A DNA stretch of 64,000 nt from Nemertoderma westbladi. Its lineage: Eukaryota; Animalia; Xenacoelomorpha. The translations under genes were made by a program, and so were the position numbers. Shown piece after piece: positions 27,135 through 64,000 of this stretch; the first letter of the stretch is position 1; the number at the start of each line of letters is the position of its first letter. Below the pieces are notes generated by a model. It searched no databases, had not been told where the DNA came from, and saw nothing but the letters and a program-made list of their open reading frames with translations. The stretch is from assembly GCA_032718475.1 (NCBI GenBank), contig JAUCBJ010006096.1:19774-83773 (forward strand), read 5' to 3'.

Positions 27135-27161
27135 CCTTACACTTTAAACGTATAAATTAAA

Positions 27162-27722: not shown

Positions 27723-27724
27723 TA

Positions 27725-28984: not shown

Positions 28985-28986
28985 GT

Positions 28987-29439: not shown

Positions 29440-29474
29440 TTAATCATTTAGCTTGCTTTTGTTTATCAGATAAA

Positions 29475-41004: not shown

Positions 41005-44000
41005 ACTATATGTATTATTTAATATACGGTATGAGAGCAATATTGCAAGAAGCAATGTCAGTGAGAAGAGGCAAGTCGTTTCCAAGGTCTACCCAGAGCT
41101 TGGTTTAGCCGAGACACGAGGATCTGAACTTTGCATTCCTAATACTCTACTTATCAATAATACTTAAGTATAGTAGGGGCGGTATATTGTACTTTAATAA
41201 GTACTGACATTTCATCTTACTGTAGTCACGTATTTATAGTATGTTACGGACAGCAAGGAAAGAGAAAATTAATTATTTCTCGCCGTTAAACGAAATATAT
41301 TATACTAAGTAATTAAGTAATAAAACACGAATATATTGCACTAATCTACTGAATAATCAATAAAATATTATTCTACTAAATAAAATTAAAGAAAACGATT
41401 ATAATAATAAAAATTACGTAATAATACATACATAAATATAAAAATAAAAATATAAAATAATGTAGTCACACATCCACTCCAAACGCTGTTATGTTGGGGA
41501 GTCCCTAGATGTTTGTTGGATTAGGGAGGTGGTCGTAGGAAGAGTCTCTTGCCTTCCATAGTTCCCGGACAACTCTCGGTCTCTTTCCAGTAAACATAAA
41601 CGACCAACTGGGCGATTAAGTTGTTGTGTTTCGAATACAATTCCAGGTTTTTTAAAGTTACGTCGCATGACGACGAGTTCTACCGATCGCACTAAACCAT
41701 CATCGGATATATGAGTCTCGATGATACGACCTGTCTGCCACCTCTTACGTGGAAGATCTGATTCCACGATAAGGACCATGTCTCCGGCGCTGACGTTTTC
41801 CTGCTGCGCAAACCACTTTGTTCGAAGTTGTAGTGTAGGAAGATAATGTTTTTCGAAATGGTCAGCGAAACGACGGGATAATAACTGCATAAGTTGCCAA
41901 GTTTGTCGGCAGTATTCATCTCCGTCCGTGATTTCCGATTGAGGGAGCATGGCTACAGGTTTCTTTAGTAGGAAATGCGCGGGTGTTAGCGCTTCTAGGG
42001 AGTCAGGACTCGATGAGACTGGCATAAGCGGTCTCTCATTAAGATAGGCGGCGATTTCTTCCATTAACGTCCGCAAAAGTTCGTCGGTGAGATACGCGCG
42101 GCACGGCACTATAAAGTGAAATGCGGTCTTCACGCTCCGTATTAGTCTCTCCCAACTTCCTCCCCACCAAGGGGCGTCGGCGGCGTTGAAGGTCCAGCTA
42201 GATGTTGTTACCCTTAGCTGATCGTCCACCTGTCTTTGGTTCCAATCTTTCACGTAAGCTTTGATCTCATTATTGGTGCCAATGAAGTTCGTTCCTTTGT
42301 CGGATCTCATAGTGTTGCTAGTCCCAAAATGAGCGATCTGTCGGCGTAAACTCAGTATGAATCTGTTGGTAGATAGATCGTTCACCATATCTAGATGGAT
42401 CGCTCTACAAGTCATACAGACAAAGAATATACACCATCGCTTGACTATAGTCCTAGCACGATATACTTCAATAGGGCCAAATAAATCCACACCAGTATTA
42501 GTAAAGGGTGGTTCATAGAAGCTTACTCGTTCCCTAGGTAATTCTGTCTCTCGCTGTGTTAAAGGCCTACTGAATGCTTTCCTACAGGGTATACAGTTCC
42601 TAAGAACTTGGTTTAGAGCTCTACGGGGCTTATGGAAATAATAGTGAGTTCGAATTTCTCTAAGAACTCGTTCCCTATTCCCTACCAGCATGGTAAAGTC
42701 TACTGTGAACATCTACAATCATCTTGATTTGTATTTCAAGATTTCTAATGAGTATGGGAAACTTAGTGTCAAAGGACAATGGAGCATTAGTTAATCTCCC
42801 TCCGACACGTATTAACCCATCTATCATTGTGCTAGAGAAACAATCCCTTAAGCGCATCTGTGGATTTCTCAACAACAGGAAATACTTATCAGAATCTTCA
42901 TAGCATTCCAGGAGTCTCAGTATCTGCTTATTGGTATCCTCATGTTCTTAATAACTGATCTTCTCAGTCAGAAACCTATCAGACACTTTATAAGTGGGAA
43001 GGTCTTTAATAACACGGACTTTTTCAGATACTATTGGAGCGGTATCACTAGCGATCTTTGTCCTCGAATAGTGATGATGGAAACATCTTTTTATATACAC
43101 AACGGCCTTGCAAAGCCGATTCCAGGAGCTATAATGATCTATTGCTCTCTGTAGGAGAGGGAAGAGTCCTTGCGAGACATCTGGTGTTCCAGATTTCCAG
43201 TCTCTTTCCCTGATTTCTATAACGGATATAGTCGTATTTCTCGTAACATCCGCGGGTGAGTTTAGATCCACAGCGTCGTCACCGGAGGTGTGTAGTACAG
43301 ACAGATCTATCACGGGTTTAAATAAATTTGATTTACTTGTCCGGGTTTTAGGTTTGACTTTCTCCCCGCTCCCTTGGCTTGTCTAATCTCCGCCGTGGTG
43401 AGATGAGGGGGCCATTCCTCCTCTTCTTTACTCAGGAAGTCGGGTCCACCTAACCAGTCCGGAGTATCTATCAGTTCTTGAGGAGTTGCTCCTCTGGAGG
43501 CGATATCAGCTGGATTAATTGTCCCAGGGCAATGTCTCCATTGATCTATATTAGAGCGACTGAGTATAATGGCTACTCTGTTGGTAACGAAGATGCTGAA
43601 CTGACAGACTTCATTTGTTATATACTCCAGAACGAGTAAAGCATCAGTCCAATAGACAGTTTTCTCTAGTGGATAGTCGATCTGTTCTGTTCCATTCTGG
43701 CCGATGGCTGTAGCGTATAGAGCCGCCTTTAACTCTGATCTAGGAACTCGTAGTTTGTTGTTTATTAGGGCCTTAGAAGCGACCAATGAAACCTTAATTC
43801 CATCCGGAGTTTCAACTCTCAGGTAGGCTACTATACCTATTCCCATATCGCTGGCGTCTCCAAACATATGGAGTTGATAGGAATACGTGGGGAGAACATG
43901 ACCAAAATATGAACTGGAAATCTTAAAGTTCTCGATGGATGGTAGAGAATCTTCCCATTTCATCCACTTCTTTAGCAGTTCTCCCTTAAGTGGATCATCC

Positions 44001-47000
44001 CACGAGTGGTTTTCGAGCCACATTTGTTGCACTAAGCTCCGAGCAACTAATATAACTGGGCTAATAAATCCCAATGGATCGAAATAAGTGCTCAGGATAC
44101 TTAGATAAATCCGTTTAGTTCTAACTGGATTATCTCGTTGTTTTAACTGAAAAAACAAGATATCTCTCTCCGTGTCCCATTTTAATCCAAGCGTCTTGGT
44201 TTCCGGAAGATCGTCCTTGATGAGGTCCAGATCTTTAACACCTCGGTCTTCTACCGGGATCGATTCCAGAAACTCACGGGAGTTACTAGTGAATTTGGTT
44301 AGCCGAAATCCACCACGTCGTAAGCACTCTACCGTTCCCTTGGCAACATCAATGGCTTCTTCCACCGATGGGAGGGACTTTAAATTGTCGTCCATGTATA
44401 TATCCCATTTAATGTTGTCGATAACCGCTTTAGAGAAGGCATCTCGGTTGTCATTGGCAGTGGTACGCACTACCAAACAAGCGTTCGAGGGGCTTGAGAT
44501 GATGCCGAAAGCCTGGATCGTCATCCAGTACTCCACCGGTTTTCGGTTGAGGTCTCCTTCAGGCCACCACAGAAATCGTAGGCTGTCTCGATCCCTATCC
44601 AGCGCCTTGACTTGTAGGAACATGCCTTCGATGTCCGAAGCAAACACGATCGAATATTGCCGCAGTCTTAGTAATATTCCCAACAAAGATTGGAGTAAGT
44701 TAGGTCCCGGCAACAGTTCTGAATTCAGGGATTGACCCATATAAAGGGCGGAGCCGTCAGACACTACCCGGACTTCATTTGGTTTACCGGGCTTGGGAAC
44801 GTAATGATGTGTTAGATAATAAGTTCTCTCCATTATGGGTGTTTCTTCCGGAACTCGCACCGCGTATCCCTTATCTATAAATTTCTTCAGTTGGGTTTTA
44901 TACATTTCCCTGGCTTGAACGTTAGCTGTCAGACGCCGATGTAGTTGTGCGATTCTTTTTTCCGCTAAAGGTCAGTTATTTACGAAGCTGGGTTCTCGCC
45001 GTCGAAACGGAAGACCAATCTCATAGAGACCGTCATCCTTCAGATAACGTGTAGTCGTTTCCTGAATCTGTTTGGCTCTCTCTTCTTCAACAGATAAAGC
45101 CTTGTCGTAGGAATTAGGCTCTACGGCTTCTTGAGTAAAGAATCGTATGGCATGTTCATCGCGTAGTTTATCATTATATCTATCTACCACTGCGTTTAAT
45201 TCATCATTATACTTCAATGATTCACTTGGTTGGTGGATAAGATGACATAGGTTGAATTGGTTCAGCCAAGTTTGGTTCTCAGTAAGGATATTGATGTCAT
45301 TTCCCTCATTATATAAGTGGTTGATATCATTGTTGTCTGAGGAGTATGGAGTTTCCTCAGCTGGGATCTCTCCTTCACTGATTTCTTCTTCCCATTCACT
45401 CACCTGGTGGATGCGTTCACTTGGGAGTCTTTCCATTAAGGTCCTATGGGAAGGTCCAGTGAAGTACCAACCTACTCTCATTCTTCCCGCATACGTCTGA
45501 AGTGGTTGCGGTCGAGCAGGCCGTTTTTCTAATGTCTCAAGTGCCTCGTGCGCATTTTGGCTGAGTAAAATCTGCACCCCTGGATAATACATATTGAATC
45601 TAGGTATATTGTGTTGCTGGGTAAAATGATCTTCATCCCAGTTGTAAGGCTTCACTTGGCTAGAAGCAAAGTTCTTTATCGCCACCATTTTTACCGACCT
45701 TACACTATTTTCTCCTAGCTCCTAGTTTCCAAACCTGCATAATTCCGGAAAGGTTCGGAACTTTGGTTGACCTGCAAAGATGTCTTCGGCTAGTTCTTTG
45801 TCGATAAAGGTGCCAGTACTGCCGGAGTCAAGGAGGGCATTTACTATCAAGCTCTTCCCTATCCCATGGACCCTCAGTTGCACCACCGGGAATTCTCGGA
45901 TACCGACATATGAAGTTGTCGCTTTCCAAGATGGCTGTGGATCCGGAATAGACAGTCGGGAATCTTCTCCTTCGGTTTCTGTCTCGTACATAAGTTCTCG
46001 ATACACATCTGTGTTGATCATATAACAGGATTCATTTTCATTGGAAAATTCATCCGTGTAGAAGCCTTCCATCTCCGAACTGTGGTCAGTGTCTTTCACA
46101 TCACTGAATTGGACATGTAGTTCGGGCTCACTTACCTGACTCGTACGGGTTCTGTCAAATTCGGTGTGCAGCAAGATATGATGTTTCGCGCCGCACTTCA
46201 CACACCTTGCATCCGAATAACAGGTCCGTCGTTGATGCCCTCATCTGAGGCAATTATAACACAACCGCTTATCCCACATGACGTCACGCCTATCCTTCAG
46301 GGATTTCTTTAAGAATTCATCACACCCACTCAAGCGATGTGGCCCGTCACACAATACACATTTAGGTTTGATATTACTTACCTTAACCTGTGTTGTGTTG
46401 TGCACACTTGTTCTTTCTTCAGGCTTTCTTCCATGAATTCTCTTGGGAGACGTAGGGGGAGTTGTTACCTGTTCTCTCCTGTCACTGATTCGAGACTAGA
46501 TTTACTTACGTCTTTCCTAACCTTATTGACATAATAAGATCTTTCGGTGTCCTTGCCACTATTCTCGTCATAGGACGTCGTCTGACTCCCACAATCCGTA
46601 TAACACACTGGTGTTACCTCTCTCCTAGTAACGGGTTTTTCACTTACCTTACTTTCCGGTGTCTTCTCTCTGGACTGCTTTAGGAGCTGTAATCTTACCT
46701 CTCAATTTAAGAACGACATGAGATCAGCCATGGTAGGGTCTCTTTGTTGCTGGTCCATCAGATAGAGAACCTTCTTGTCCCAGCAAGTACCTACTCCACC
46801 CTTTGGCAAAGTAGATGCTACGGCTCCAACAACCATAGAACTCTGGTATTCCTGAGACTTACCTAACCAATCTAGCTGTCTACAGATCTCCTGAATCTCA
46901 TTGGAAAACTCTATAATCCCGCTGCTAAGAAAATTTTGGGGCGCTACTAATTTCGCATACAGATACCTAGCTATGTTTGTCCTATTACCATACCTGATGT

Positions 47001-48710
47001 TTAGTGTATCCCAAACTTGTCTTAATCTGTCTGGATGTCCAATAAACTTTAACGCCATTAACTTGGGAGGTCCTTCCAAGCACTCGATGAGGAATCGAAG
47101 TTTATCTCCATTGGATAGTACAGAGTTCTGTATGTTATCTTTATAATATTCATTAAAAGGTAACCATTTCATCTCATCTCCATTGAACTTGACGACCTCT
47201 CCTACGTTTACCGCTTGATGGGCTTCGGTTCTAGCCATTTGACGTATAAAACTTTCTTGAGCCATCGTATTATTTAATATCGAGTTATCAGTCTATAAAT
47301 TTCTCGGATTATGATCAGATCTGTATGGGATATCCATTATCAACAGGCTTATAATTACCCTTAATAGGGTTTACTATAGGAGTTTCTACTTCGCTAGCAG
47401 TATAGATGCGTGTAGGCTCCACACCTTGCGCATGAAATACTTCAGACCTAACTGGCTGACACATTGTTACAGGGGGTGGTGGTATACCCATTTGTATATT
47501 TACTAATTTATCATGCTCTAAAGCGATACTTTGTTGTACTTCTTGCAGCTCTAACCTACTCTCTCTTACTGTTCCCTTTAACAGTTGAACAGTCCCTTCT
47601 AATTCTCGGACTTGTTCGGAAGATCTGTTTTTGTGACCTTCCAACTGCCCGAGCAGCCGTTCCATCCCCCGTCGTCCCTCGTCCACCCACTCAACCGCGG
47701 AGGCGGGAGACGCCAATATGGTAGCTGGATGGCACATCAGGACGATGGGAGACAGTTTGATAATGTCTTGCTCGGCGTCTAGGACAGTTTGGGATTCTCT
47801 CAGTTGTCTACTGGGCACAGGTAGTTTAGTACTGTGCAAAGGGAATTTAGAGTTAGGTTCTGGAAGTACAGGGGTCTCTATCAAGGGAGTGGCTTCAATA
47901 ACAGGCCTAATTATTTTGGGCTCGTCTACTATAGTAGGGAGTCTTTCTACTCTAATAATTTGGTCTGTAGGCTCTTGATTACTTAAATCTACATTAGCTA
48001 GTTGCCTTCTCACCGCAGGAGGCAAATTAGGTAACTTCTGCCGGTGTGGCGCTCTTCTACGTCCGCTTGAACGAGATTGATTACCTTTAGCCTCGGGATC
48101 CGTTGTATCACCTTCATCGGAGGAGGTAAATCCCTGTCTTCTGGGAGTAGATCGACTCAGTAGTTGCATCTGAGTAGTTGCTCTCTGTTTATTTAAGTAA
48201 TCTTGTTTCGCCTGAAGATTCTCCAACTCTAGTTGGGTTGTCGCATCAGCTGCTCTTCGTTCTGCCACTGCCGCTGCTGCTACCGCTTTTCTTTCCGCTT
48301 CCGCCGCCTTTCTTTCAGCTTCTGCCGCTGCCACTTTTCTTTCCGCTTCTGCCGCCTTTCTTTCAGCTTCTGCCGCTGCCGCTGCTGCTAACCTTCGGTC
48401 TTCTATTTGCTTTTTCTTTATTTGCTCTTCTTGGTCCATGGTGATAAGGATGCCTTCATCAAATTTAGTCTGCTCCGCAGCTAATATTTCCGCATATAAA
48501 GAATCTAACACGAATTTGGCTCCCTCACTATGAGGGTGAAGTCCAGCTAGCCGTCTCCTTAGCTCTTTGTCACCAATAAATCGTTGATAATCCGACAGAT
48601 AGATGTCAATAGCATCCTTCTTCTGAGGTTTTTCGGATATCGCTTCGCCTTCCACATGAGAAAAGGTGGTATCTGTTGATTCTCCGTGGGTTATGCGCTC
48701 AGTTAGCTGA
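41005..48710 (-). mobile_element. BEL/Pao copy 2 (same family as copy 1), 5'-truncated; 3' LTR starts ~41470 and is interrupted by the hAT element
   Basis: Collinear homology to 15300-21685; PPT-like ggagtggatg followed by tgtgactaca. Confidence 0.9.
41489..48710 (-). pseudogene. Fragmented BEL gag-pol including full integrase core
   Basis: ORF pieces 47315-48655, 46702-47265, 45722-46201, 44972-45688, 43310-44905, 42948-43313, 41489-42712; GVDLFGP, RSDKGTNF, WGGSWERLI, LTPAHFL. Confidence 0.9.
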
Positions 48711-49084
48711 AGTATCCTGAATCATAAAAACTTGTCCGATACTTTTGAAAATCGACCTGTTTAAATTAATTCTGGAAAGATTCAGTGTTGAATAATGATT
48801 TCACTGGGATCCTTATCATTTCAAAAAACATGTGTCACAAAGTCAGTTAAATCTATTTTTTGGTAGTATAAGATATTATTCGGTAAACAATTTTTGTTTG
48901 TCAATCATACAAATATATATAGCAGCCACATAACAAAAATCAGACTGTTTCACTCATAAGTACTTCAGTAATCATTAAAAATCTGCAATATGTCAGAAAA
49001 AGGGGTAGCGACCCCTTAATATTTAATCTTGCATTCTAGAAAACCATAGGAAAACATTCAAAGTATGATCTTATTAATTTAGCT

Positions 49085-50135: not shown

Positions 50136-50464
50136 AAAAAATTTAAAAACTCTAAAAAAGGATTGGTGAAAAATGGCTGGGGTGTCGACAGGGCGAAGTA
50201 GGGACCGTGTTGCTTAACCCCTTAGAGCCTATGACGTCCAGTGCATGTCACCATGGACAGCACTAAGACGTGCAGTGGACGTCATGCTGGAATACATGTT
50301 TTATTGGAAGGCTCTTGGAGTAGGTATACTGGTGGATAGTATTAAAGACATTTAGTGCTCTTCATGGGAAAAAATCCATTCTGTACTGTAGATAGGCTGT
50401 ATTGTAGACTGTATTATCAATGTTAGGTATATGGCGTAATGTCAACCACAGTCTTACAGTAGTA

Positions 50465-51003
50465 CAGACTGACAGTAAGACCGACAGACAGACAGACTAG
50501 ATGTATGTAAACGTGTACTGACATCAGAAATGAAATCAGCAACCCTTAAAACCCCCATAGCGGGAATGTTGGTTAGTTAGTATACTTTCTTAAGTTTTGA
50601 CAGACTGACTGACAGAAAAAGACCGACAGCCAGACAGACTACATTTATTAAACGTGAAAACTGACATCTGAAATGAAAGCAGCACCCATTAAAACTCCCA
50701 TAACGAGAATGTTAGTTAGTTTGTATTCTTTTTTAAGTTTTGACAGACAGACTGACTGACAGAAAGACCGACAGACCGACAAACTAGATTTATGTAAACC
50801 TGAAAACTGACATCAGAAATGAAATCAGCACCCCTTAAAACCCCCACAGCGAGAATGTTAGTTAATTTGAATTATTTTTTATGTTTTGACAGACTGACTA
50901 ACAAAATGACCGACAGACAGACAGACTAGATTTATGTAAACGTGAAAACTGACATCAGAAATGTAATCAGCACACTTAAACCCCCATAGCGAGAATGTTA
51001 GCG
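50465..51003 (+). repeat. ~143-bp tandem repeat x4 with (GACA/GACT)n microsatellite
   Basis: Unit cagactgac...actagatttatgtaaac...ctgacatcagaaatgaaatcagcacccc...gagaatgtt. Confidence 0.9.
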
Positions 51004-51270: not shown

Positions 51271-52010
51271 AGTAGTAGGCATAACAACGTGATTGAGACA
51301 GCGTCTGCCATAGTCTACCATGTTAAAGAATTTGCCGAACGGCTCTTGCCCCGCCTACTTACTATGATTACTATTGTTGCCCCACCCACTTACTATGGTT
51401 ACCATGGTTACCATTGTGCATATGTAACATATGTCACCGCTGTGTATATATGTGACATACACGGTATAAGACCAGTTTGCAGGCGTGCCCCGCCTACTTA
51501 CTATGATTACTATTGTTGCCCCACCCACTTACTATGGTTACCATGGTTACCATTCTTGACCCCGCCATGGTTACTATGGTTACCATTGTGCATATGTGAC
51601 ATATGTCACCACTGTGTATATGCGACATATGCGGTATAAGGCCAGTCCACAGACGGAAGTAATTTAATTAATTCGTGTCTACCGGTCGGCGTTTGACCTT
51701 GAACCGCAATAGGTAAAGTGGGCAAACCCATAATATTACACTTTTAATTACAGTTGCAACAGCTCATCTCCAATTTAAATAAACACAGACTTATGGGGGC
51801 GAGCCATGAAGTGAGTGATAGCATCGAAGTGAGGTTATTGTATTTATACTTATCACTACGCAACAAGTTGTGGGGGGGGCGAGCCGTGAAGTGAGTATAA
51901 GGTTATAGTATTTATAATATTATTTTAATAATTTGATTATTCTACCTATGGGGCGAGCCATGAAGTGAGTGATAGCATCGAAGTAAGGTTATTGTATTTA
52001 TAATTATTAA
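51271..52010. repeat. Candidate Polinton terminal inverted repeat region
   Basis: (AGT)n start typical of Polintons; 139-bp duplication (51347/51486); palindrome gtgacatatgtcac; three ggggcgagcc(a/g)tgaagtgagt repeats; partner TIR lies outside the window. Confidence 0.55.
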
Positions 52011-52654: not shown

Positions 52655-52903
52655 CTAATTATTATTATTTCCGGTTTTACCAGATACGTTAAAGAGACCC
52701 CCGCCCGTAAGGTTTCTGTGAAGACCCCAACCCATATCACTTACCGTGCCCCATATATTTATTAAAAATATTGCTATTACTATATACCCAAGAAATAAAT
52801 ATTTATTATTAATATTAACGCTAATAATAATATGTTCACACACCGTAATTGAATATACCCATAACCAAAATAAATAAATTATTTTATTAATGAAAGTGTC
52901 CAC
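52655..52903 (-). CDS. Small hydrophobic, possibly two-TM hypothetical protein
   Basis: ATG overlaps the protease 3' end; two hydrophobic stretches. Confidence 0.35.
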   Translation of the reverse strand: MDTFINKIIYLFWLWVYSITVCEHIIISVNINNKYLFLGYIVIAIFLINIWGTVSDMGWGLHRNLTGGGLFNVSGKTGNNNN

Positions 52904-53319
52904 TGTAATAACAATAAATCATTGTACCGCAAATTAGAGGTGAATATATTCATTGCTCTGGGATTTTTCGGCACCTCGGTTAAATAATACAGACAAAATA
53001 GACCACACTGAGTCGATTGTGGCGCTTGAAATATTTTACGATTCCAAGTATGCCTTTGGGTATATTTATGCAACCAATATGATATTTTTGGTGGAGGCGC
53101 TTTACCAAACGAATCTAAATAATAAGCAATTCTGTTAACCACGCGCACGCAAGACCAGTGTTGTCCAGGTAGGCCTATACGTTGATTATTAATAATAAAT
53201 GAATAATTTTGTTTATGCTTATTTTTTTTTGTGTGTATTATGTGTAATTGGTCGATTGCGTAAACACCGATGTATTCGGGCCCCACCGGGAATTTCGCTA
53301 ATTGTATAGAGTCCAACAT
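52879..53319 (-). CDS. Adenain-like cysteine protease
   Basis: PGQHW, YLDSFG, FQ....TQCGLFC. Confidence 0.9.
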   Translation of the reverse strand: MLDSIQLAKFPVGPEYIGVYAIDQLHIIHTKKNKHKQNYSFIINNQRIGLPGQHWSCVRVVNRIAYYLDSFGKAPPPKISYWLHKYTQRHTWNRKIFQAPQSTQCGLFCLYYLTEVPKNPRAMNIFTSNLRYNDLLLLQWTLSLIK

Positions 53320-53349: not shown

Positions 53350-54600
53350 TTATTCAGTTATTATTTCCTTGGCTTCCGAAATAGATAGAAGAGCGTCATA
53401 GCTTGCCATTAATATAACGTTAATAGTGTTAACTAGCGCATTACTAAATTTCAGAATCAAATGCCCACTAGTATGAACACTAGGTTGAATCTCATGGCTT
53501 TGATCCCCGCCGGCAGTAAGATCAAATACGATCAAAGGAAATTGGGTACGAAATCGTTCTGGTGTTAGCGAGCAAAATACGCCGCTCAAGCTCTTGAACA
53601 CGTTCATTAAACTTTCGAATTCCAACATAAAATTGTTTTCTGGAAAGTTAGGGCGATATGGATACCCGTGTATAATACGGGAGTCGATGTTTAGTTCAGC
53701 ATAATTTAAACCGAAATGGTTAAAATGTAACGGATTACTGCTTAATTCCCCGTTGAAGCTGGCGTTGGTAAGCATTCCAACCAAAATATACTTAGGTAAT
53801 TTCCCTTGGATTATGTTCGATTCTGTATAACTGGATTGCCCACCGCCAATAGTGAAGGTTTTCACTTCTTGTTTTAACAAGTTATAAATAAAGTCATTTT
53901 TTTGTGACCCCAACAAATGCGCGCGCATAACCTCGGCATCAATCTTGTGGCGTTTTATTTTTAAATTAATATTCATGATTTCAACTCTCGGGTTTACCAA
54001 TCCTGCGGGGGGTTCAACTTTCAAAAAAAAATTATTCGATACTCGGTCTATACGAAGTCGAATGTTAATTCCCGGCGGCAGTAATTTGTCCTGGCTTGCC
54101 AGGTCTAAAAAAATTGGGGCCACAACGAATTTAACATAATTCCCGCGAACGTCATTCTCAGTAGCGACAGGTACCCCACCTAGATTATTATCATTATCTT
54201 CATACCCACCAGCACTTAAAATACTGCGTTTTTCGTTAGCATCTGTCAACAGTAATGTCTGAAACGTAGACTTATAGGCGTAGAACCCATTCGAGGTTTC
54301 AACTAGCTTTTCATTTAAATATAACGAACAATTTTCAAATAGTGACCCACCCGGGTAATTAAGATGGTGGAGGGTTGTATCGTCGTTAGCCCTATTACCA
54401 TCCCATGTAATTTTATATTTAATGTGAAATTTCGAATTCTTTAAATCAGTATATAGAACATTTGACTGGGGTATAAAGAACTCGATTTGTCGGGCATTCG
54501 CGTCAAGAGTAGAAATCGGGTAGATATCCGAAAAATGTGAAGATGTATATTCTCGCTGATTTGTTTTACTTGAGAATAATGATAATTCTAATTTACTCAT
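53350..54600 (-). CDS. Polinton major capsid protein
   Basis: LELSLFS, QDKLLPPG..I.L, PKYILVGM..N..F.G....NPLHF.HF, FDLT; homolog of 27725-28984. Confidence 0.9.
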   Translation of the reverse strand: MSKLELSLFSSKTNQREYTSSHFSDIYPISTLDANARQIEFFIPQSNVLYTDLKNSKFHIKYKITWDGNRANDDTTLHHLNYPGGSLFENCSLYLNEKLVETSNGFYAYKSTFQTLLLTDANEKRSILSAGGYEDNDNNLGGVPVATENDVRGNYVKFVVAPIFLDLASQDKLLPPGINIRLRIDRVSNNFFLKVEPPAGLVNPRVEIMNINLKIKRHKIDAEVMRAHLLGSQKNDFIYNLLKQEVKTFTIGGGQSSYTESNIIQGKLPKYILVGMLTNASFNGELSSNPLHFNHFGLNYAELNIDSRIIHGYPYRPNFPENNFMLEFESLMNVFKSLSGVFCSLTPERFRTQFPLIVFDLTAGGDQSHEIQPSVHTSGHLILKFSNALVNTINVILMASYDALLSISEAKEIITE

Positions 54601-54609
54601 TTTGTTAAG

Positions 54610-55137
54610 TTACATAAAAATATCACGGCATTTATTATTTCGCTTTTTACGTTTGCGCCCAACGTTCATACCCACACTTGGGTGTCGTCGTTTCCCGCTC
54701 CTCTTTTTTTTACTTTTCGGGTTTGTAAATTCATTGTATACCCGTTGGGCGATTTGGCGAGTCTTTGGATGAGGTTCTAACCGCTCGGCCACTTTATTTA
54801 TCAAATCATCTGCTTTACCGCGTAAAATACGTTTTCCTTCCGGTATTATGTATTTCCGTGCTACTTTCGCTGCTTTGGGGAGTGCCTTAGTTAGCACCTT
54901 TCTCCCTAACTTGCGGGCTAATATACCCAGACCAGTTGTTAATATTCCGCGTCCGCGCTGGCGATTTTGGGTGTATCGCCGCCCGAATTTATTATTCTTA
55001 TTATTCCATATACCAGTAGATGGGCCAAACCCCGGGAGAATGCTTCCACCCTTAAAAACGGGTATATCGCTATAATTCCCGCTTCCCAGTTGGATTTGTG
55101 GGGTGCTATATAATTTAAACAAATCAGAATCTGACAT
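54610..55137 (-). CDS. Basic core protein
   Basis: SDLF..YS.PQ, PVFKGG, QRGRG; Lys/Arg-rich tail; homolog of 27162-27722. Confidence 0.7.
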   Translation of the reverse strand: MSDSDLFKLYSTPQIQLGSGNYSDIPVFKGGSILPGFGPSTGIWNNKNNKFGRRYTQNRQRGRGILTTGLGILARKLGRKVLTKALPKAAKVARKYIIPEGKRILRGKADDLINKVAERLEPHPKTRQIAQRVYNEFTNPKSKKKRSGKRRHPSVGMNVGRKRKKRNNKCRDIFM

Positions 55138-55143
55138 TATTAT

Positions 55144-55447
55144 GAGTATTTATTATAACATATAATAATAATTCTTTACTACATACGTATATGTGTAATC
55201 TACAAATATAAGTAGCATATAATAACGCAATAATTAATTATATATACATTAATTCGACGACAACCATTTCCCATAACCAACCGCGAGTTTCGCAGGAGTA
55301 TTTATTATAACATATAATAATAATTCTTTACTACATACGTATATGTGTAATCTACAAATATAAGTAGCATATAATAACGCAATAATTAATTATATATACA
55401 TTAATTCGACGACAACCATTTCCCATAACCAACCGCGAGTTTCGCAG
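55144..55447. repeat. Exact 152-bp tandem duplication
   Basis: 55144-55295 repeated at 55296-55447; includes the nuclease 3' end and the core-gene upstream region. Confidence 0.95.
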
Positions 55448-55997
55448 AACAATAATTAAAACAAAAATCACTATTATCAGAATGGTAGGCACAATTTGTT
55501 ATTGCCGAAAAATCGTGAAAAAGGCATTTGGTGTCATAATCAACATATTTTTCGTTTATGCCGTACGTTTCTAGAAGTGTTCCATTCACATTAAATTCAT
55601 TTTTTAAAATAAATAATTTCGGTATTCCGCGTATTAATATTTGAAACCCCAACCGTTTTTTTTCTTGTAACCATTCCTGTATGTACATTTTAAATGCGCT
55701 TTGGTCCATAAATCCGTAGTCAAAATTAATGTGATGCGTAATATTGGCGAGTTGTGTGAGACGGTCGTATTCGCTTAAACTTAAAATTTTTGCAGGTGGA
55801 CCATTAATAAACCATACGTTTTCTAATGATTTGATGGTAGTATTATAAGCCGCAAACTCTTTAAAATAAATGGTTGCAACGGGGTGTTGGTCGATCTGCG
55901 GAAGATGCGTATAATATTGGAAATCTACTATTATTCCCGGGTTTTCCAGCGTCGGGTAATAATCACGCCCACGGCTGCGACTTAGAAATTTATCCAT
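55401..55997 (-). CDS. DnaQ/DEDD-fold, Maelstrom-like putative nuclease
   Basis: IIVDFQY...FKEFA, HHINFDYG, CLFH....CAYH...C..YCSAK. Confidence 0.55.
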   Translation of the reverse strand: MDKFLSRSRGRDYYPTLENPGIIVDFQYYTHLPQIDQHPVATIYFKEFAAYNTTIKSLENVWFINGPPAKILSLSEYDRLTQLANITHHINFDYGFMDQSAFKMYIQEWLQEKKRLGFQILIRGIPKLFILKNEFNVNGTLLETYGINEKYVDYDTKCLFHDFSAITNCAYHSDNSDFCFNYCSAKLAVGYGKWLSSN

Positions 55998-56071: not shown

Positions 56072-56875
56072 TCAATCAATTCGTATAAAATGAAGCGTCA
56101 ATATTGAATTTCCATAATGAAAGCGCAACAAATTTCCGGAATCTCCAATCAATCGAACTCGTATATAACGTAAATTAGATGTTGAATTAACTTTTTTATA
56201 GTAGACTTCCTCAACTTCACGACTAATAATTTGCCCATATTCCCCTTCTATGGGTATGCTACGCAACAGAGGGTATTCGCTATTGTCTACAAATTGAGGT
56301 TCGACGCAATTGATATGTATATTTATGTTGGGTTCCAGTATTTCGACAGCATTAGGATGCTTATGGCAGTCGTACTTATTATTCCGCGAATCAATCCTTA
56401 GCAAGTGATAATCCCCCGCAGCATTTTGCACACACATAAAACCTTTGCCATCAACCTCGTGTTCTGTTAATCCTAGGTAACCACCCAAACGTTTACTGAC
56501 AAATATCGACAACTGTTTACCTTTAAAATGTATGGTTATATTACCTGAGCGTGCTGTATTATCAATTATATTAATTTGGCCTTTAATAAGGCTTTTGTTG
56601 AAGTACTCAATGATCCTTTCCAATGATAGGAAAGATCCTTCGGGGAGAGTAACATCTCTTGTAAACATTTTTTTATTTTTTATGGCCTTTATATAAATGT
56701 CGCTATTGTCATACCTGATACTAGATACGTACGTTATACCGGTTAAACCTATTAACCATTGCCCTTTAGCGAAAGGTAAAGGAATTTGCAAATTTGTTTG
56801 GAAATCGCTGGCGCTATTACGCGGGAATTCTATGGGGTTTGCGTTTGAGGGTAGTACAACGTAATAACTGTTCAT
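56072..56875 (-). CDS. Minor capsid protein (penton) paralog 2
   Basis: YVVLPSN....FPRNSASDF...L..PL...W.IGL..I.Y ... PLLR.IP ... YY ... L.LHF. Confidence 0.8.
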   Translation of the reverse strand: MNSYYVVLPSNANPIEFPRNSASDFQTNLQIPLPFAKGQWLIGLTGITYVSSIRYDNSDIYIKAIKNKKMFTRDVTLPEGSFLSLERIIEYFNKSLIKGQINIIDNTARSGNITIHFKGKQLSIFVSKRLGGYLGLTEHEVDGKGFMCVQNAAGDYHLLRIDSRNNKYDCHKHPNAVEILEPNINIHINCVEPQFVDNSEYPLLRSIPIEGEYGQIISREVEEVYYKKVNSTSNLRYIRVRLIGDSGNLLRFHYGNSILTLHFIRID

Positions 56876-57756
56876 TCTTGTAGTTTTTGTCGCCGTTGTT
56901 GTTTTTTGAGTTCTAGAACTAAAATTGTTTTACCCCCATGAAAGACTATATGCTTTCCTTTATGGTCGCGAAGCGTTATACTAATTGTGTCGAGCACTTT
57001 TTTATTTCTTAATTGTTTGTAATGTGTGTTTTTGAATTCCAGGTTGATGAATGAGTATGGTTCCCATTTCAAAGGGATTATCCGCAAAAGAGGCGCCATC
57101 GAATGTCCTACGTGAGAAGATTCAATCATATCTGTATATATAAACATTGTGTGTCTATCCCTCGTTATATCGCAAGGTTCGGGGAATTCAACTCCATCCG
57201 CTTTGTTTGTATCTTTACAGCCTAAGTTCAATAAATCATCATCTTTGTTATAGTGTATTGCCCAAAGCGCCCCAAGACCCATTAAATTATTTTTTAAACT
57301 CGATAACCCGAAAATATTTATTATATCTCCATAGAATTGGAAATAGCGGCCTTTCTCACAATGTAGACGAATTTTTGATGTATGTTTTTGGTAGTTAAAC
57401 TTAACATCTTTGAAACCGTGGTGGGATATTGCGGGATTTTTCAAATAAACACTAATATGGTTTAAAATTGACTCAATAGAAGCATATAGACCAAGATTAA
57501 AATCGATTTCTATAAGATTGTATGGAGCTATATGAAATTCCAAATCCTCATCAACCATATATTCACCAATTCTAATTCCAGATCTTTGTTCAATATTTCT
57601 ATAGGTCGACACATACTGTATTTCCTTTAGACCCACGACCCAATCTGTGCTGACGGGGATAGGTTTGGACAACTCAATCGTGAAATCGCTGGGAGTGTTA
57701 TCAGGATATTTATCTAGACTGGCGTTGGAAGTCAACGTTAAATGTAAGTAATCCAT
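56872..57756 (-). CDS. Minor capsid protein (penton) paralog 1
   Basis: LTLTSNAS...YPDNTPSDF.I.L..PI...W.VGL.EI.Y ... FIYTD.IE...VG....PLLR. Confidence 0.85.
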   Translation of the reverse strand: MDYLHLTLTSNASLDKYPDNTPSDFTIELSKPIPVSTDWVVGLKEIQYVSTYRNIEQRSGIRIGEYMVDEDLEFHIAPYNLIEIDFNLGLYASIESILNHISVYLKNPAISHHGFKDVKFNYQKHTSKIRLHCEKGRYFQFYGDIINIFGLSSLKNNLMGLGALWAIHYNKDDDLLNLGCKDTNKADGVEFPEPCDITRDRHTMFIYTDMIESSHVGHSMAPLLRIIPLKWEPYSFINLEFKNTHYKQLRNKKVLDTISITLRDHKGKHIVFHGGKTILVLELKKQQRRQKLQE

Positions 57757-57770: not shown

Positions 57771-58845
57771 TTATTGTACGTGATCAACCCACCGATGTGC
57801 CGCAAAACCAACAAATTTAACCAAATATTGCTTTTTGCCGCTTTTATTTACTTTTTCTTTAATTATTTTTTCAATTGGTAGGAATTGAAATGGTTCTATT
57901 ACCTTTTGGATTTCATGCCGATAAAATGTCCCCTTTATAACGCGCCCATTCGAGTCCGCAACTTCGTACATAGGGTACGGCTCTCGATCCAATCTTATTC
58001 TGTAGATTTTGAAAATTTCTACAGTATAATTAGGTGTATAACCTTTGTCAAATGGCTTTCTAGCTAAACTCAGCCGCACCTTATCACCAACCTTGAAATG
58101 AACTCGACGCTGCGCACGGCGTTTTCTTTTATTGGGATGACCCACACTCCCATATAGTTTTAAAAATAGGTCAGTTTCATTCTTTTTATTGACAGAGTTT
58201 GGCGCCATACCAATGGTTCTATGTATTGAATTATTATATGCAACCAATATTTTTGGCAATATACCCATCCATTCTCTATTCTGTTTCCTCGTGAAAATTC
58301 TGTACATGCGAGATTTGAGGGTGCGATTCAGCCTTTCACAGATACTAGCTTTAAATTGGCTAACTAAAGTATAAAAATGAACATTATTGTTCAGTAAGAA
58401 ATCTTTCACCAATTTATTAACAAACTCAGTTCCTTGATCAACCGCTAGCCGTTTAGGTTTTCTATCTTTAAATATCGCGGCTAGGGCCCTTTTAATTTCG
58501 ACCCCTGTTTTACGTTTTAGACCCAACGCCCACGCCTTCCGACTAAAACAGTCAATACAAGTAAGTATGTAACCGTAGCCATTATTCTCACCCCTAAAAG
58601 GTTGCATATCGCACAAATAGATCACCAATACCGCTCGTGAAGATTTTTGATGTCGGGTAATGGCGCCTAGCCGGCGCGTGTAGGGAATACGTTCGTTGGG
58701 AGCTCAACCATTCTTTTGCGCGATTTCTCGTAACTTTAGCGGCTTTCGCTAGTTTGGTTACGCTCGCGAAACCGGCAGCATTTGAAACATCGTAATATAT
58801 TCTTCCCAGTCGTTTGTTTGTTCGATTTTCTACGATTCTCCCCAT
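57771..58845 (-). pseudogene. Polinton retroviral-like integrase with C-terminal chromodomain-like region, frameshifted at ~58615
   Basis: N-terminal YYD....GF...KL in one frame; CDMQ, IDCFSR, VDQGTEF, ERLNRTLK, YNNSIHRTIGMAP, FDKGY, IEKII..QYLVKF.G in another. Confidence 0.9.
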
Positions 58846-58969
58846 CGGTTGTGTCGTGTCGTGGAAGAAAACACTTGCAATGACAGTTAATACTTAATAT
58901 GAAACGTTCAAAAAACATACTACTACTACTATTTTAATGTTATCCTGCGCTTTGTTTCCACACGTCGAT

Positions 58970-59431
58970 TTATTGTAGTCCTACGTATTGTTTCCACGCG
59001 TCGGCGCGTTTTGTGTTGGAAGGGGTCACGCGGACCCTTTGCCGTTTCAACCAACCGCGACCAATTAATCGTTTTGGTATCCTTAATCGTTTTAATAACC
59101 CCAAAAATGTTGCTTGTCCTGGAATTATTTCGGTGTTTTTCTTATTTTTTTTTGTAGTCAGCAATTCAATCAAATGATCAATATTTGCTCCGGGAATAAG
59201 TTTATTTTCTATATAGAGTTTATTATTATCGTTCCACCGTACTCTGTCTCGCGAGAATCGCATCAAATAACTCAACAATCGTTTGGCTTTCTGGGATGAA
59301 ATTGTCACACCATCTAGCGGTTGTATTATATTATTGCTTTTCTTATTATTATTATTATAAGTATCCGTTAATAAAGTAGAAACTAGATACAACTTCTTAA
59401 AATTTCCGAGGCTAATCTCGTTATTTTTCAT
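58970..59431 (-). CDS. Conserved Polinton hypothetical protein
   Basis: KAKRLL..L ... WND...L.I....IPGANI..LI ... PG...FL..L....IP..LI pattern, between ATPase and integrase. Confidence 0.65.
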   Translation of the reverse strand: MKNNEISLGNFKKLYLVSTLLTDTYNNNNKKSNNIIQPLDGVTISSQKAKRLLSYLMRFSRDRVRWNDNNKLYIENKLIPGANIDHLIELLTTKKNKKNTEIIPGQATFLGLLKRLRIPKRLIGRGWLKRQRVRVTPSNTKRADAWKQYVGLQ

Positions 59432-59552
59432 CGTTATATATCATTATTAATATATTAATACTATATACTAGAGTTCACGTTCATGGACCGATAATAACCT
59501 AATTTCGGTGAAAGTCTAAACAATGTGTGAAAATGGTTTTAGCGCGGCGTCG

Positions 59553-60263
59553 CTACTGCGGTATAGACTGGGCCTCGGGGCGTTGGTGAGGTGTGTTAGA
59601 GTTCATATTCGCGGGTTGATAAACAGTTTGCCCTAATGGGTTGAAAATATCACCCCTAACTCTTATACTATCATCCGTTTTTTGATGAAAGTCTAAGAGA
59701 AGGTGTGTGAATGGTTTTTGTGTGGCGTCACTATATGCTTGAACAATAAAATTGCTATTTTTTGGGTACACTTGCCGCGCTATATAGCTTATTTGACTTG
59801 CGTCGCGGGGATTTTTTGTGAAAATACAATATTGGGCATTTAGACTTCTAGTCCGTGTTTCAGCCCCTTTACTGAAGAAATTTTGTGTTATATAGATAAT
59901 GAAACAGGAAGTATGGTGGCAGGTTTTTGTGAAGCTTTCTGTCAAACTCTCATCACTCTTACTTTCGCTTAACAAGTCGTCTATAATAATTAGATCGTTT
60001 TCGCGGAAAATAGAATTAATTTTTTGCGGTAAACCTTTGAATAGATGTGTTATACCCGGGAATTCTGGTGGGGTGGCGCCATAAAAGAATAATACACGCT
60101 TCGGGGTTATATCAAAAACTAAATTTTTATTTTTTACAATTTTTGATACCAACACTGTTTTTCCGGAAGAACTTGGACCCGCAATAATCATGGCCGAACC
60201 CATCTTGAAAGAGGCGTCGTATGATGTGATTGGTTCCCGCGATATCGTCGGCTCTCGGGACAT
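59553..60263 (-). CDS. A32/FtsK-HerA family genome-packaging ATPase
   Basis: Walker A GPSSSGKT, Walker B LIIIDD, HH..C.II.ITQN, RTRSLNAQY, KNPRD. Confidence 0.95.
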   Translation of the reverse strand: MSREPTISREPITSYDASFKMGSAMIIAGPSSSGKTVLVSKIVKNKNLVFDITPKRVLFFYGATPPEFPGITHLFKGLPQKINSIFRENDLIIIDDLLSESKSDESLTESFTKTCHHTSCFIIYITQNFFSKGAETRTRSLNAQYCIFTKNPRDASQISYIARQVYPKNSNFIVQAYSDATQKPFTHLLLDFHQKTDDSIRVRGDIFNPLGQTVYQPANMNSNTPHQRPEAQSIPQ

Positions 60264-60280: not shown

Positions 60281-60742
60281 TCAGTAGATGGGAAACCTAG
60301 AAACTTGACGGTTGACGCGTGTGCCAGAGGTAGTAGGTCTATACCCCCGGCGGGATTGGGCTAATTTTCTGCCTCTTACAGCCGTTATTATGGGTGATAT
60401 TTTCTGATAAGCGTTAAGCCCACTCATTAAACCAGAGATTAGTAGATTTATAAATCCGCCCCTTTGCACCAATCGTTTACGATAAATTCGAATGGGATAC
60501 TTGGCTTTTGGTTTTTTAGCGATCTCGCGTATTGTTTTTTTATGGCGTTTTAACCTCGCGATTGTTTGCTCAGGAATTTTTACGTTACCATTTAATACAT
60601 TTAGAATAATATTAATTAGAAAACTTATAAGTTCGTCGGTTCCGCCGACACGTAAGAAGGTTTTTCTACGGTTGGGGGAGGCGTTAGATAAGAACTTTAA
60701 ATCCCCGTCAAATTGTTTAATTAAAGCTTTGAGTGATTTCAT
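60281..60742 (-). CDS. Conserved Polinton virion protein with QRGG|F site (pX/pVI-like role inferred)
   Basis: N.L.GNV....LKRHK..IR...K.LVQRGGFINLLISGL. Confidence 0.7.
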   Translation of the reverse strand: MKSLKALIKQFDGDLKFLSNASPNRRKTFLRVGGTDELISFLINIILNVLNGNVKIPEQTIARLKRHKKTIREIAKKPKAKYPIRIYRKRLVQRGGFINLLISGLMSGLNAYQKISPIITAVRGRKLAQSRRGYRPTTSGTRVNRQVSRFPIY

Positions 60743-60914: not shown

Positions 60915-61600
60915 AATCCACGTTTAAAAAACCAAACGAGATCCCACAGGACAAACCTACAAAATTTCGAAATTATTCAAAAATGAAACTTTTAATTTTT
61001 CGAAAAATTTTATGAAATTTCTAATTAAATATTACTACCCAAATTACTAATAAAATTCAAACTTTTTTAAGTTTTAACAGACTGACTGACTGACAGACCG
61101 ACAGACAGACAGACTAGATTTATGTAAATGTAAAAACTGACATCAGAAATGAAATCAGCACCCCCTAAAACCCAAGACCATCAATAAAACACATTATATA
61201 TATATATATATCAAGGGAACAATGATAATATCCGCATTTAAAAACCAAACGAGATCCTAAAGGGCAAACTTTCAAAATTTTTAAATTTTTCAAAAACGAA
61301 CATTTTAATTTTTCGAAAATTTTTTATGAAATTTCTAATTAAATATTACTACCCAAATTACTAATAAAATTCAAACTTTTTTAAGTTTTGACAGACTGGC
61401 TGACTGACAGAAAGACTGACAAACCGAAGACAGATAGACTAGATTTATGTAAATTTAAAACTGACATCAGAAATGAAATCAGCACCCTTGACAACCTAAG
61501 ACTACCGATAAAACACGTTATATATATAATGTGAATAATGGTAATATCCACGTTTATTTAAAAACCTAACGAGATCCCACCGGACAAACCTAAAACTGAC
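60915..61600 (+). repeat. ~315-bp tandem repeat x2.2 sharing its core with the 50465-51003 array
   Basis: aaaaccaaacgagatcc-like motif recurs at ~60928, ~61241 and ~61561; contains gactgac...actgacatcagaaatgaaatcagcaccc. Confidence 0.85.
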
Positions 61601-61617
61601 ACCAAAAAATGAAAAAA

Positions 61618-62178
61618 TTAAATATTTCTACCTAAATGACTATCTAAATTACCGATAAAATTCAAAAACTTTGGAAAAAATACTCGAAATATCTCGGGTC
61701 TTGCCATACACACAACATTTCGTGTGTAAAAAACGCAAAATGTTATGATATTAGAACTAGTTTTACCCCGACGATAAAACTGCACAAGAATATTATTAAA
61801 TATCTCCGGCTCATATTTCACCTCCACATTATAATAATTATCTAAAAAATGAAACCCAACCGTTTTCATTAATTTGCTATAGTCTATGTCTAGATTGTTA
61901 ATAATATAAGTTTGGCTATTGATTGAAATAAAAGTTAGTTTATAATCAGTATGCTTATATATATACTTAATAATTTTTTTTATTTTAGGTGATTTACCGA
62001 GTACAGTGACCTTACCGCTCGGGAAAAAGAGACACGTCCATCCGCAAATTTTGGCGATATATTGGTAAGGCTTTAAGATGAGTTTTCCATTTCGAATTCG
62101 TTTAGCCAGCACATCGAATGATATGCACCCATCACCCAACCTCAAACTTATATTACTGTTGACAATACTAAAAGACAT
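61618..62178 (-). CDS. TATA-binding protein (TBP)-like protein
   Basis: 186 aa with two TBP-like repeats: IVNSNISLRLG, LAKRIRN, TCLFFPSGKVTVLG, then KYEPEIF and FCVFYTRNVVC; starts 9 bp after the PolB stop. Confidence 0.75.
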   Translation of the reverse strand: MSFSIVNSNISLRLGDGCISFDVLAKRIRNGKLILKPYQYIAKICGWTCLFFPSGKVTVLGKSPKIKKIIKYIYKHTDYKLTFISINSQTYIINNLDIDYSKLMKTVGFHFLDNYYNVEVKYEPEIFNNILVQFYRRGKTSSNIITFCVFYTRNVVCMARPEIFRVFFPKFLNFIGNLDSHLGRNI

Positions 62179-62187
62179 CGCAATCCG

Positions 62188-64000
62188 CTATTCTATAATG
62201 GGCGGCATATAAAGCTTAGGGGCAGGCGCTTTACGATCCAAATGTGTTTTATAATGACCGTAAGGTAGACTTTCATTAGTCGATGTGTAGTACCTTTTAT
62301 CTTCCCACAGTGTTAGCGATTTTTTTCTTTGTGAAACGGTGTATATTTTATGTAAATTAGATTGAAACCTTTGACTGTATTCGTAATGCTCGCTAACCTC
62401 GTTATATACTTTTAAATATGATTCGTGGGAGAGTTTCTTTTTTATAACCATTTTTCCTACGCCTTTAGCGACACGTTTTGGAACTGACCCCCCACGAAAG
62501 CTATAACATTTTGGTCTAAGTAAAATAACCTGGTCAAACGGGATAGACTTCCCTTCATCCTTTAAATATCTATATTTCCCTTTCTGTTCTACTGTATACA
62601 ACGGATGCGTAATAGGGTAATTTGAACAGTCTAAAACTTTTTTTGATTGTAACGCAGATAAAAATTGGTGTTGGGATAAACCAACACACTGTAAAAAAAA
62701 AGAATCCGTGTCCCCACCTAGCAAATTTATACTACAATTTAATTCGGCTTCCACGGGCTTTAACTTATCGTAGAAAAAAGTGTAGTAATCTAACTTTGAC
62801 AAGTCCAACACAGCTTGGCCTAAAAAAATAGGTTTATGCAAACAAACCGCAGCCTTAGATAGGACGTGACCTGATAATGAATCAGTGAACATAATTAAAT
62901 TTTCGTGATTCGGCTTGGATAATAATAAGTCACATTTCTCGATTGAATTACATAAGCGAAATGAGACACGGTCCCGTATATTCTCCATGCTTTTCCCGAA
63001 AAGCGCGTTATTTGTTCCTTTGTGAAACTTATCATAAAAGTCATTGCGCGCAATTTTTCTCTGCTGTGTGTTATATTCAATAAAATCCTTAAAAATGTAA
63101 CCTTGCTTAAATCTAATAAGTTTATGAACTTTAATCAAACGCATACCATGATGAATATAAAAGCGCAATAATTTTAGATGCACGCCGTACTCATACTTAT
63201 CAAATTGGGTTAACATCAATTTTTTTGCTGGGCTATTGAAAATTTTATCACCATTATAATGTCGCCAAAGACTTTTCATGTGCGGGCTGAGATACCTACT
63301 ATCGAGTTTAATATGCTCCGGTGCAAATGGAAGCTCAGCTGTGGCATCATGAATAGACATTGGGTATTCAAGGTCTACAATTGCGAAGTATCCAAATATA
63401 TCGTCAATTTCCAGACTCATGATATCGACACTATCAACATCCAACCATTCAAAGTCAGAATAAGGAAGTTTCTCCGACAAAGAACCGCTATATAAACTGT
63501 TGAAATCTAAATTATATAAATGAGCTTCAGGTTTATTAGGGTCGTATGTTTCTGTGCCTGGTATATTCGCATTTGCCATATGAAGGTTGGTGTAAGAAAC
63601 CCCACCCCTAATGGAATTTTCGAATGTTAAATACATTTCATGGTCTGCAAGTAGACGAATATGTGACTTGGAAAATCTCAAAGCCGCGTCCCAACTAACC
63701 CCTGCCATCGTGTAATAGTTCGACACCTCAAGCGAATAATGTTTAGTACAATATGCGCGAAAATTTTCAAAAATATCGGCTAGCAGCAAAACGTCAAGAT
63801 GTAAGTAAGCTTCCAAATAATCAAAAAGTGTCTTACATTGAAATTGCTCCCACGAAAGATGTGCAAATGTATATTCTTCGGGGCTAATAGATGATAATGT
63901 TAATTCACTGTAAAACTCTTTTGGATGTGGTAATTTAGTATCCTCCAATTTACTTAAGGAATCGACATATTCGTAAGGAAAAACTGACTTACGACGTAAA
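62188..64000 (-). CDS. polB: Protein-primed family B DNA polymerase (5' part outside the window)
   Basis: RKSVFPYEY, YLHLDVLLLADIFENFR, SIRGG, DFNSLY, KGTNNALFGKSMEN, GGDTDS, LRPKCY, AKGV, EDKRY..SLPYGHY; frame open to the window edge. Confidence 0.95.
   Translation of the reverse strand, partial: LRRKSVFPYEYVDSLSKLEDTKLPHPKEFYSELTLSSISPEEYTFAHLSWEQFQCKTLFDYLEAYLHLDVLLLADIFENFRAYCTKHYSLEVSNYYTMAGVSWDAALRFSKSHIRLLADHEMYLTFENSIRGGVSYTNLHMANANIPGTETYDPNKPEAHLYNLDFNSLYSGSLSEKLPYSDFEWLDVDSVDIMSLEIDDIFGYFAIVDLEYPMSIHDATAELPFAPEHIKLDSRYLSPHMKSLWRHYNGDKIFNSPAKKLMLTQFDKYEYGVHLKLLRFYIHHGMRLIKVHKLIRFKQGYIFKDFIEYNTQQRKIARNDFYDKFHKGTNNALFGKSMENIRDRVSFRLCNSIEKCDLLLSKPNHENLIMFTDSLSGHVLSKAAVCLHKPIFLGQAVLDLSKLDYYTFFYDKLKPVEAELNCSINLLGGDTDSFFLQCVGLSQHQFLSALQSKKVLDCSNYPITHPLYTVEQKGKYRYLKDEGKSIPFDQVILLRPKCYSFRGGSVPKRVAKGVGKMVIKKKLSHESYLKVYNEVSEHYEYSQRFQSNLHKIYTVSQRKKSLTLWEDKRYYTSTNESLPYGHYKTHLDRKAPAPKLYMPPIIE

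Follow-up and report, generated by a model that had tools for sequence, protein, structure and literature searches.

The 64,000-nt stretch of Nemertoderma westbladi DNA analyzed here (the window) raises the question of why a Polinton, a kind of element that to our knowledge lacks an RNA polymerase, would carry a gene resembling that of the TATA-binding protein (TBP) right behind its DNA polymerase, and what such a gene could do there. The original prediction, made from the letters alone, was of an intact 186-aa open reading frame (ORF) 9 bp past the stop of DNA polymerase B (PolB), with five TBP-like motifs. This description is borne out. The ORF (P0001) occupies positions 61618-62178 of the minus strand, runs from ATG to TAA with zero internal stops, and begins after a 9-nt spacer from the PolB stop TAG (62188-62190); all five motifs are present in its translation. 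A stop-free run of this length has a probability of about 1e-7 under the local composition. GC content at third codon positions is 0.305, slightly lower than the 0.33-0.38 of eight other element genes, and the protein consists of the two-lobe TBP core only, with no N-terminal extension.

The claimed TBP homology is supported by profiles from which the protein itself was left out. Profiles built from nine Polinton TBPs and from 45 relatives score it at 51.4 and 52.6 bits, respectively, the match spanning residues 2-136, whereas 2000 shuffles reach at most 7.8 bits against such profiles. The proposed Pfam search did find TBP (PF00352, E 0.0013) with the protein alone, but its 19 bits fall under the curated cut-off of 22.9. 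In the ESM Atlas, 29 of 30 matches are TBP clusters (top score 0.95), at a recognition value of 1849, which is under the tool's mark of 2300. Single-sequence searches gave no match in a homolog search, among 1.84 billion protein representatives, or among PDB sequences, and scans of viral contigs yielded 0 loci whether the query was the protein, the PolB of the window, the alignment of TBPs, or a cellular-type TBP, with 8 and 1 confirmed stretches in two of the scans. Since this protein escapes plain sequence searches across billions of proteins, TBP genes like it are probably under-counted.

The protein is predicted to fold as a pseudo-symmetric two-lobe TBP saddle. An AlphaFold2 model guided by an alignment of its TBP relatives has a pLDDT of 82.6, and comparison with the PDB describes a two-lobe saddle (Z 11.8, rmsd 3.3 Å, 167 aligned residues). 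The top five VIA-align matches of the model are TBP chains with Z of 10.0-11.8, the best non-TBP standing at 7.3, and Foldseek likewise places TBPs on top of the PDB matches (E 6e-9, TM 0.5-0.6). Structural matches in BFVD are viral TBP-like proteins, with E from 1e-9 to 1e-4. A single-sequence AlphaFold2 model (pLDDT 37) was discarded, as it gave kinase-lobe noise only, with Z of at most 5.6. The AlphaFold and Foldseek check suggested with the prediction came out in its favor, the saddle being predicted and the top PDB matches all being TBPs. We regard it as confirmed that the protein is a real, extremely diverged TBP homolog, encoded by an intact ORF in a Polinton context.

That context is a Polinton/adintovirus, with a protein-primed PolB, an rve integrase, a packaging ATPase, an adenain protease, and a jelly-roll capsid. 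The element extends from a likely left terminus at AGTAGT (51271-51276, plus strand), which we take to be the Polinton end motif, beyond the right edge of the 64-kb window, so that a single end is seen. Its genes lie on the minus strand and begin with the 3′ part of PolB (62188-64000, open at the window edge), whose homologs carry PF03175 at 34-44% identity; the named ones are animal. A canonical TATAAAA (62247-62253, minus strand) lies inside the PolB tail, 75 nt before the TBP ATG; it is possibly a host-driven early promoter or possibly just a Tyr-Lys codon pair, and the nine sense-strand occurrences of TATAAA are compatible with chance. The first AATAAA past the TBP stop is at 61553-61558 (minus strand), another lies within the TBP ORF at 61984, and the gap from the PolB stop to the TBP ATG has none; the PolB and TBP transcripts may therefore end together.

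Next in order is a spacer of two repeats of ∼314 nt (60916-61589) between TBP and the virion block, kin to repeats that lie in host DNA immediately beyond the element's left end (50464-50983), with which it has a unit of ∼110-140 nt in common. The first gene of the packaging and virion block is a basic 153-aa ORF (60281-60742, minus strand), labelled by position; small ORFs of like size adjoin the ATPase in related loci. An A32/FtsK-type packaging ATPase follows (59553-60263, minus strand; Pfam Pox_A32 E 0.009; 27-43% identity to related-locus ATPases), and then a second 153-aa ORF (58970-59431, minus strand). The spacer between these two (59432-59552, minus strand) looks like a degenerate duplicate of the ATPase 3′ end (59553-59730), with ATGAAC in both (59484 and 59606). 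The rve integrase (57771-58845, minus strand) is in two frames in this copy, split near 58600-58620, and is succeeded by two ORFs of 294 and 267 aa (56072-57756, minus strand) that position and homology mark as likely penton-type. A 198-aa ORF (55401-55997, minus strand) has a weak Maelstrom match (E 0.061) and is possibly a nuclease-fold or anti-silencing gene; it has a homolog in the Polinton remnant described below, and similar DEDD-looking ORFs follow TBP in two related loci (L007 and L015). A perfect 152-nt tandem duplication (55144-55447) covers its end and the region upstream of the basic core-like gene (54610-55137, minus strand). The major capsid protein, likely a double jelly-roll (53350-54600, minus strand), takes its label from an ESM Atlas lead (0.98 to clusters with PF21738 in 15-30% of members) and from homology to related loci; neither the protein nor its alignment matched PDB sequences. 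The block ends with an adenain-type maturation protease (52879-53319, minus strand; Pfam Peptidase_C5 E 0.074), which is 36% identical to that of the remnant (E 1e-5). Pfam scans of 28 window ORFs, covering the visible part of the element, found no match to TFIIB or RNA polymerase families.

The remnant, at 27162-30065 on the plus strand, is a second, distant Polinton with core-like, capsid, protease, and 196-aa ORFs that are 33-38% identical to those of the main element; its 5′ side is cut by a copia LTR (26933-27162). The element is flanked by Pao/BEL and copia retroelements. Two related Pao/BEL retroelements lie in opposite orientation (14438-21690, plus strand; 41489-48721, minus strand), are 72-90% complementary, and are both split into several ORFs, and a 15-nt unit forms arrays of both orientations around a small reverse transcriptase fragment (4699-7242).

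Relatives of the TBP-like gene were sought in 84 loci fetched with a PolB profile, namely four viral loci plus the 80 best among 352 confirmed metagenome stretches. Homologs are present in nine of the 84, many of which are under 8 kb and too short to show a TBP gene; among the 24 loci of at least 8 kb, seven have one. All nine proteins pass Pfam TBP (E 4e-12 to 2e-18, 46-66 bits), and a profile search with them gave 44 further proteins, of which 36 were aligned after omission of seven half-length fragments and one 131-aa fragment. By its sequence the Nemertoderma protein is a member of this Polinton-borne TBP family, at about 75-80% divergence from all relatives. Its place directly behind PolB is lineage-specific rather than general, as in none of the nine relatives does TBP directly follow PolB; theirs lies at least two genes later, often near the ATPase block. 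The PolB proteins of L007 and L015 are 90% identical and those of L009 and L019 73%, with L048 at 39-40% to the latter pair. In four loci of the TTAAGC group (L007:7511-8399, L015:2522-3467, L017:8810-9743, and L021:4842-5739) the TBP ORF shares 300-440 nt with an upstream ORF read in a different frame; these overlaps arise if the first ATG is used, a hint at splicing or a later start. A phylogeny of the 46 aligned rows, none omitted, fixes neither the placement of the protein nor a single origin: its branch, at 6.85 changes per column, is the longest in the tree and not placeable, and the Polinton TBPs do not group apart from two cellular-type rows. We therefore make no claim about origin or monophyly.

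Which residues are kept and which are lost bears directly on function. Yeast TBP numbers were mapped onto the protein by alignment. All seven family-invariant columns are retained, and F52, F150, E123, E125, and F127 are the same in 46 of 46 aligned rows. Three of the four DNA-wedging phenylalanines are kept. For the stirrup pair, which we take to be yeast F99 and F190, one per lobe, the C-lobe phenylalanine is kept (F127, presumably yeast F190) and the N-lobe position is P37, a Phe-to-Pro change common to this protein and 42 of the 43 Polinton-type rows and found in neither cellular-type row. N7 is presumably yeast N69, and N9, K36, Q39, and K56 are common to all six TBPs of the group associated with the word ATAAAC (L009, L011, L014, L019, L048, and P0122). 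The C-lobe is altered more than in any relative: Pro to N128, Gly to R153, and Gly to A159 are unique to this protein at positions invariant in all 45 relatives, and N154, at which the usual lysine is lost, and T58 are further departures peculiar to it. Alignment of the first C-lobe strand allows more than one register, with S88, T90, or N95 as a possible match to yeast N159. A phenylalanine at L5.1, described as a DNA contact in the available portion of PMC7221094, is present in both lobes (F52 and F150), and both C-lobe glutamates given there as the TFIIB contact, C.L3.2 and C.L3.4, are kept (E123 and E125).

We propose, with a probability of roughly 0.55, that the protein is the element's own late-promoter factor, which would bind a variant box ahead of the integrase and virion genes and recruit host TFIIB and RNA polymerase II (Pol II). 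It would be made early, together with PolB, and its target would be a non-canonical box some 30-100 nt upstream of the genes for packaging and capsid; the retained E123 and E125 would then recruit host TFIIB and, through it, Pol II. Use of the host's TFIIB is suggested because the TFIIB-contact positions are kept in the family and no TFIIB family match was found among the 28 ORFs scanned.

Related Polintons provide the evidence for such boxes, counted within 100 nt before ORF starts. The word ATAAAC precedes 7 of 15 ORFs in L009, 9 of 14 in L019, and 5 of 11 in L048, with about 1 expected, and TTAAGC precedes 7 of 14 in L007 and 8 of 11 in L015, with 0.5 expected; TACGCA-like words are found before ORFs of L017. 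The median distance from box to ORF start is 53 nt. The box word (ATAAAC versus TTAAGC) tracks the TBP subgroup, the virion genes of these relatives sit behind lineage-specific non-canonical boxes (clearly so in five loci), and the TBP gene of L019 has a box before itself. There is no excess in 14 loci lacking TBP, each with ATAAAC before at most two ORFs and TTAAGC before at most one; this count omits L014, L022, L031, and L074 (at least 8 kb, with only 3-4 ORFs), and loci scored as TBP-lacking may be incomplete. Two TBP-lacking loci, L042/L043, instead have canonical TATAAA at 5 of 10 ORFs, with 0.3 expected. The family-level case for a Polinton TBP with its box is strong. Against it, the box-bearing relatives make up only about 3-4 independent lineages, and similar single-locus P values can occur in control windows, with shifted windows of one TBP-lacking lineage going down to P 6.5e-6.

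The case for the Nemertoderma copy is incomplete. ATAAAC precedes 1 of its 11 ORFs (0.7 expected), lying 30 nt before the protease ATG, and TTAAGC precedes 0 of 11, so neither word is enriched. A candidate variant box, TGAACG/ATGAAC, has been considered. TGAACG has four sense-strand and zero antisense copies, among them minus-strand sites 52 nt before the second 153-aa ORF (59478-59483), 65 nt before the integrase ATG (58905-58910), and, in the core-like gene tail, 68 nt before the capsid ATG (54663-54668). This candidate fails three permutation tests (P 0.95, 0.15, and 0.14), WTGAAC has no strand bias (9 sense versus 8 antisense), no word reached significance in de novo motif searches of the element, and scoring with matrices derived from the relatives' boxes yielded P of 0.15, 0.82, and 0.50. 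ATGAAC is one letter off ATAAAC. Within the tail of the core gene, which precedes the capsid gene, it matches, in place and frame, the ATAAAC of L019 and L048. The remnant, whose capsid protein is only 37% identical, has it too, 80 nt ahead of its capsid gene. The capsid-gene site could reflect a Met-Asn codon constraint, and AAC makes up only 58 of 210 Asn codons. We infer that this lineage may read an ATGAAC-like variant of the ATAAAC box. The self-encoded transcription switch of the original prediction is thus supported in related elements by their non-canonical boxes, but not by any enriched box here.

A decoy, or an adaptor of weak specificity, would account for these observations differently: the TFIIB loop would be kept and sequence reading by the C-lobe lost, and the protein would act by sequestering host TFIIB or Brf, or would attach to AT-rich stretches of the element with no particular box as its target. 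It is because the C-lobe has lost family-invariant residues that this reading, like that of an eroding gene, must be given some weight. In its favor, the family's residues persist at E123, E125, and F127 but have changed at N128, R153, N154, and A159, the net charge is +15, and no box is enriched in this element. We nevertheless consider it unlikely, since the L5.1 phenylalanines F52 and F150 and also N7 are retained, the relatives pair TBP subtype with box, and a one-letter variant of their box stands at the equivalent place ahead of the capsid gene.

Another reading is that an old Polinton TBP is eroding as selection on it relaxes, its lineage having returned to the use of host TBP; its intact look would come from the recent expansion of one copy. 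The long branch and the lost invariant glycines fit this, as do AT-rich TATA-like words before some of the virion genes here. Copies of the gene bear on it further. Four sequencing runs (X1-X4; one organism label, three samples) cover the stretch, although X4 has no cover over 61534-61869, a hole that proves nothing. One run that may be of RNA showed no match to the TBP stretch, which has no bearing on expression. A 332-nt X1 contig from within the ORF shows 0 differences at a depth of 3345, and diverged contigs have depths of 36-58; this depth, which is no copy number, fits many near-identical copies or an amplified episome, and copies so alike leave little time for decay. The low-depth diverged contigs have gaps, as old dead copies would (X3 record 17, 17 differences and 3 gaps in 61712-61905; X1 record 4, 7 gaps in 62151-62251). 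The disruption in sister copies that would have spoken against the prediction was looked for, and no indel inside the ORF is listed in the high-depth copies at a 1% share, nor any stop. The 14 listed variants, pooled, comprise 6 synonymous and 8 non-synonymous changes and 0 stops, for a pN/pS of about 0.34 (nominal P 0.047), a value that rests on listed variants only, leaves transitions unweighted, and includes three changes in one codon. This is a weak signal of purifying selection; the comparison among copies proposed with the prediction thus yields a synonymous excess, but a slight one. Constraint on the PolB tail is stronger (pN/pS 0.20 over 33 variants). Codon 38 (62065-62067; listed as 61961 versus the 62065-62066 region), beside the lost stirrup phenylalanine, carries a Tyr/Phe polymorphism, with Y38F accounting for between about a fifth and a third of the contig depth summed in X2 and X3.

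We judge erosion improbable, and a little more so than a decoy, given that the gene, for all its divergence from its relatives, has an open frame, normal length, and every invariant column, that its copies have a synonymous excess, and that Y38F keeps the residue aromatic. A recent, neutrally decaying retrocopy of host TBP or TRF2 is largely refuted and very improbable: the gene is intronless, but the protein has no more than 17-24% identity with cellular TBPs of solved structure, has at position 37 the Phe-to-Pro change of the Polinton-type rows, and scores 39.4 and 35.0 bits against two Polinton subgroups versus 13.8 against a cellular profile that, with two sequences, is a weak control.

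If the protein is a late-promoter factor, it would by analogy work like the late-gene TBPs of herpesviruses, yet outside that system. The TBP mimics KSHV ORF24, EBV BcRF1, and HCMV UL87 are described with a TATT late box in the parts of PMC7498053 and PMC12529657 available to us. As in these beta- and gammaherpesviruses, a TBP-like protein occurs with no RNA polymerase of its own and, here in related Polintons only, with virion genes behind a non-canonical TATA-like word. ORF24, unlike the Nemertoderma protein, binds Pol II via its own N-terminal domain in a six-protein complex, and its model is reported as incompatible with direct TFIIB binding (same sources, as far as available), whereas the Nemertoderma protein keeps the TFIIB glutamates. 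An extra Pol II-binding domain is absent, as all 186 residues align to the TBP core. The TBPs of large dsDNA viruses share the two-lobe fold and the L5.1 phenylalanines, but the available text of PMC7221094 gives their TFIIB-contact positions as diverged, with a TFIIB of their own that co-evolves; Polinton TBPs, in contrast, keep both glutamates in every aligned row, and no TFIIB gene was detected in the visible part of the element. With cellular TBP and TBPL1/TRF2 (PDB 7o4i, 1cdw, and 1vol) the protein shares the predicted saddle, N7, F52, YEPExF, and F150. It differs from cellular TBP in an identity of about 20%, the N-lobe stirrup Phe-to-Pro change, shortened N-lobe loops, and loss of the C-lobe G-K and the terminal Gly. 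At N.L5.1 it has Phe, unlike TBPL1, which has Trp according to the same portion of PMC7221094.

The original prediction left open whether such a gene had been described, and it is not wholly unreported. In the Fig. 5 legend of Starrett et al. (2021; PMC8502044), a TBP is labelled for MELD viruses with an adintovirus-like PolB. These resemble the present element in having a TBP-like ORF in a Polinton-type genome, a likeness known from that legend label only; in the portions of the source at hand, the word promoter is absent from the main text, and TBP and TATA are absent from one supplement. Two further papers, available in part, place TBP in mirusvirus-type elements. Our search of the literature on Polintons/Mavericks with TBP or promoters, in which coverage of subscription papers, figures, and preprint supplements was partial, gave this legend as the sole direct mention and no description of a Polinton TBP together with its cognate box.

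Overall, we tentatively suggest, at rather less than even odds, that Polintons carry a one-protein early-to-late switch, in which a minimal TBP keeps its contact with host TFIIB while its DNA-reading face and the promoter word change together by lineage (ATAAAC, TTAAGC, TACGCA-like, and here ATGAAC). Compared with the viral TBPs in the available part of PMC7221094, such a switch would be the simplest of its kind, one 186-aa protein, since the host-TFIIB contact is kept. The copy in Nemertoderma marks the limit of the Polinton TBP family, and its element would, if this is true, hold the most diverged working TBP-box pair among the elements compared. Lineage-specific pairs would show which residues set TATA specificity, and together they would form a natural series of orthogonal TBP-promoter pairs running on host Pol II. 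How Polintons time their capsid and packaging genes without an RNA polymerase of their own bears on whether they form virions, and a private TBP with a private box would be a concrete answer to that question of timing.
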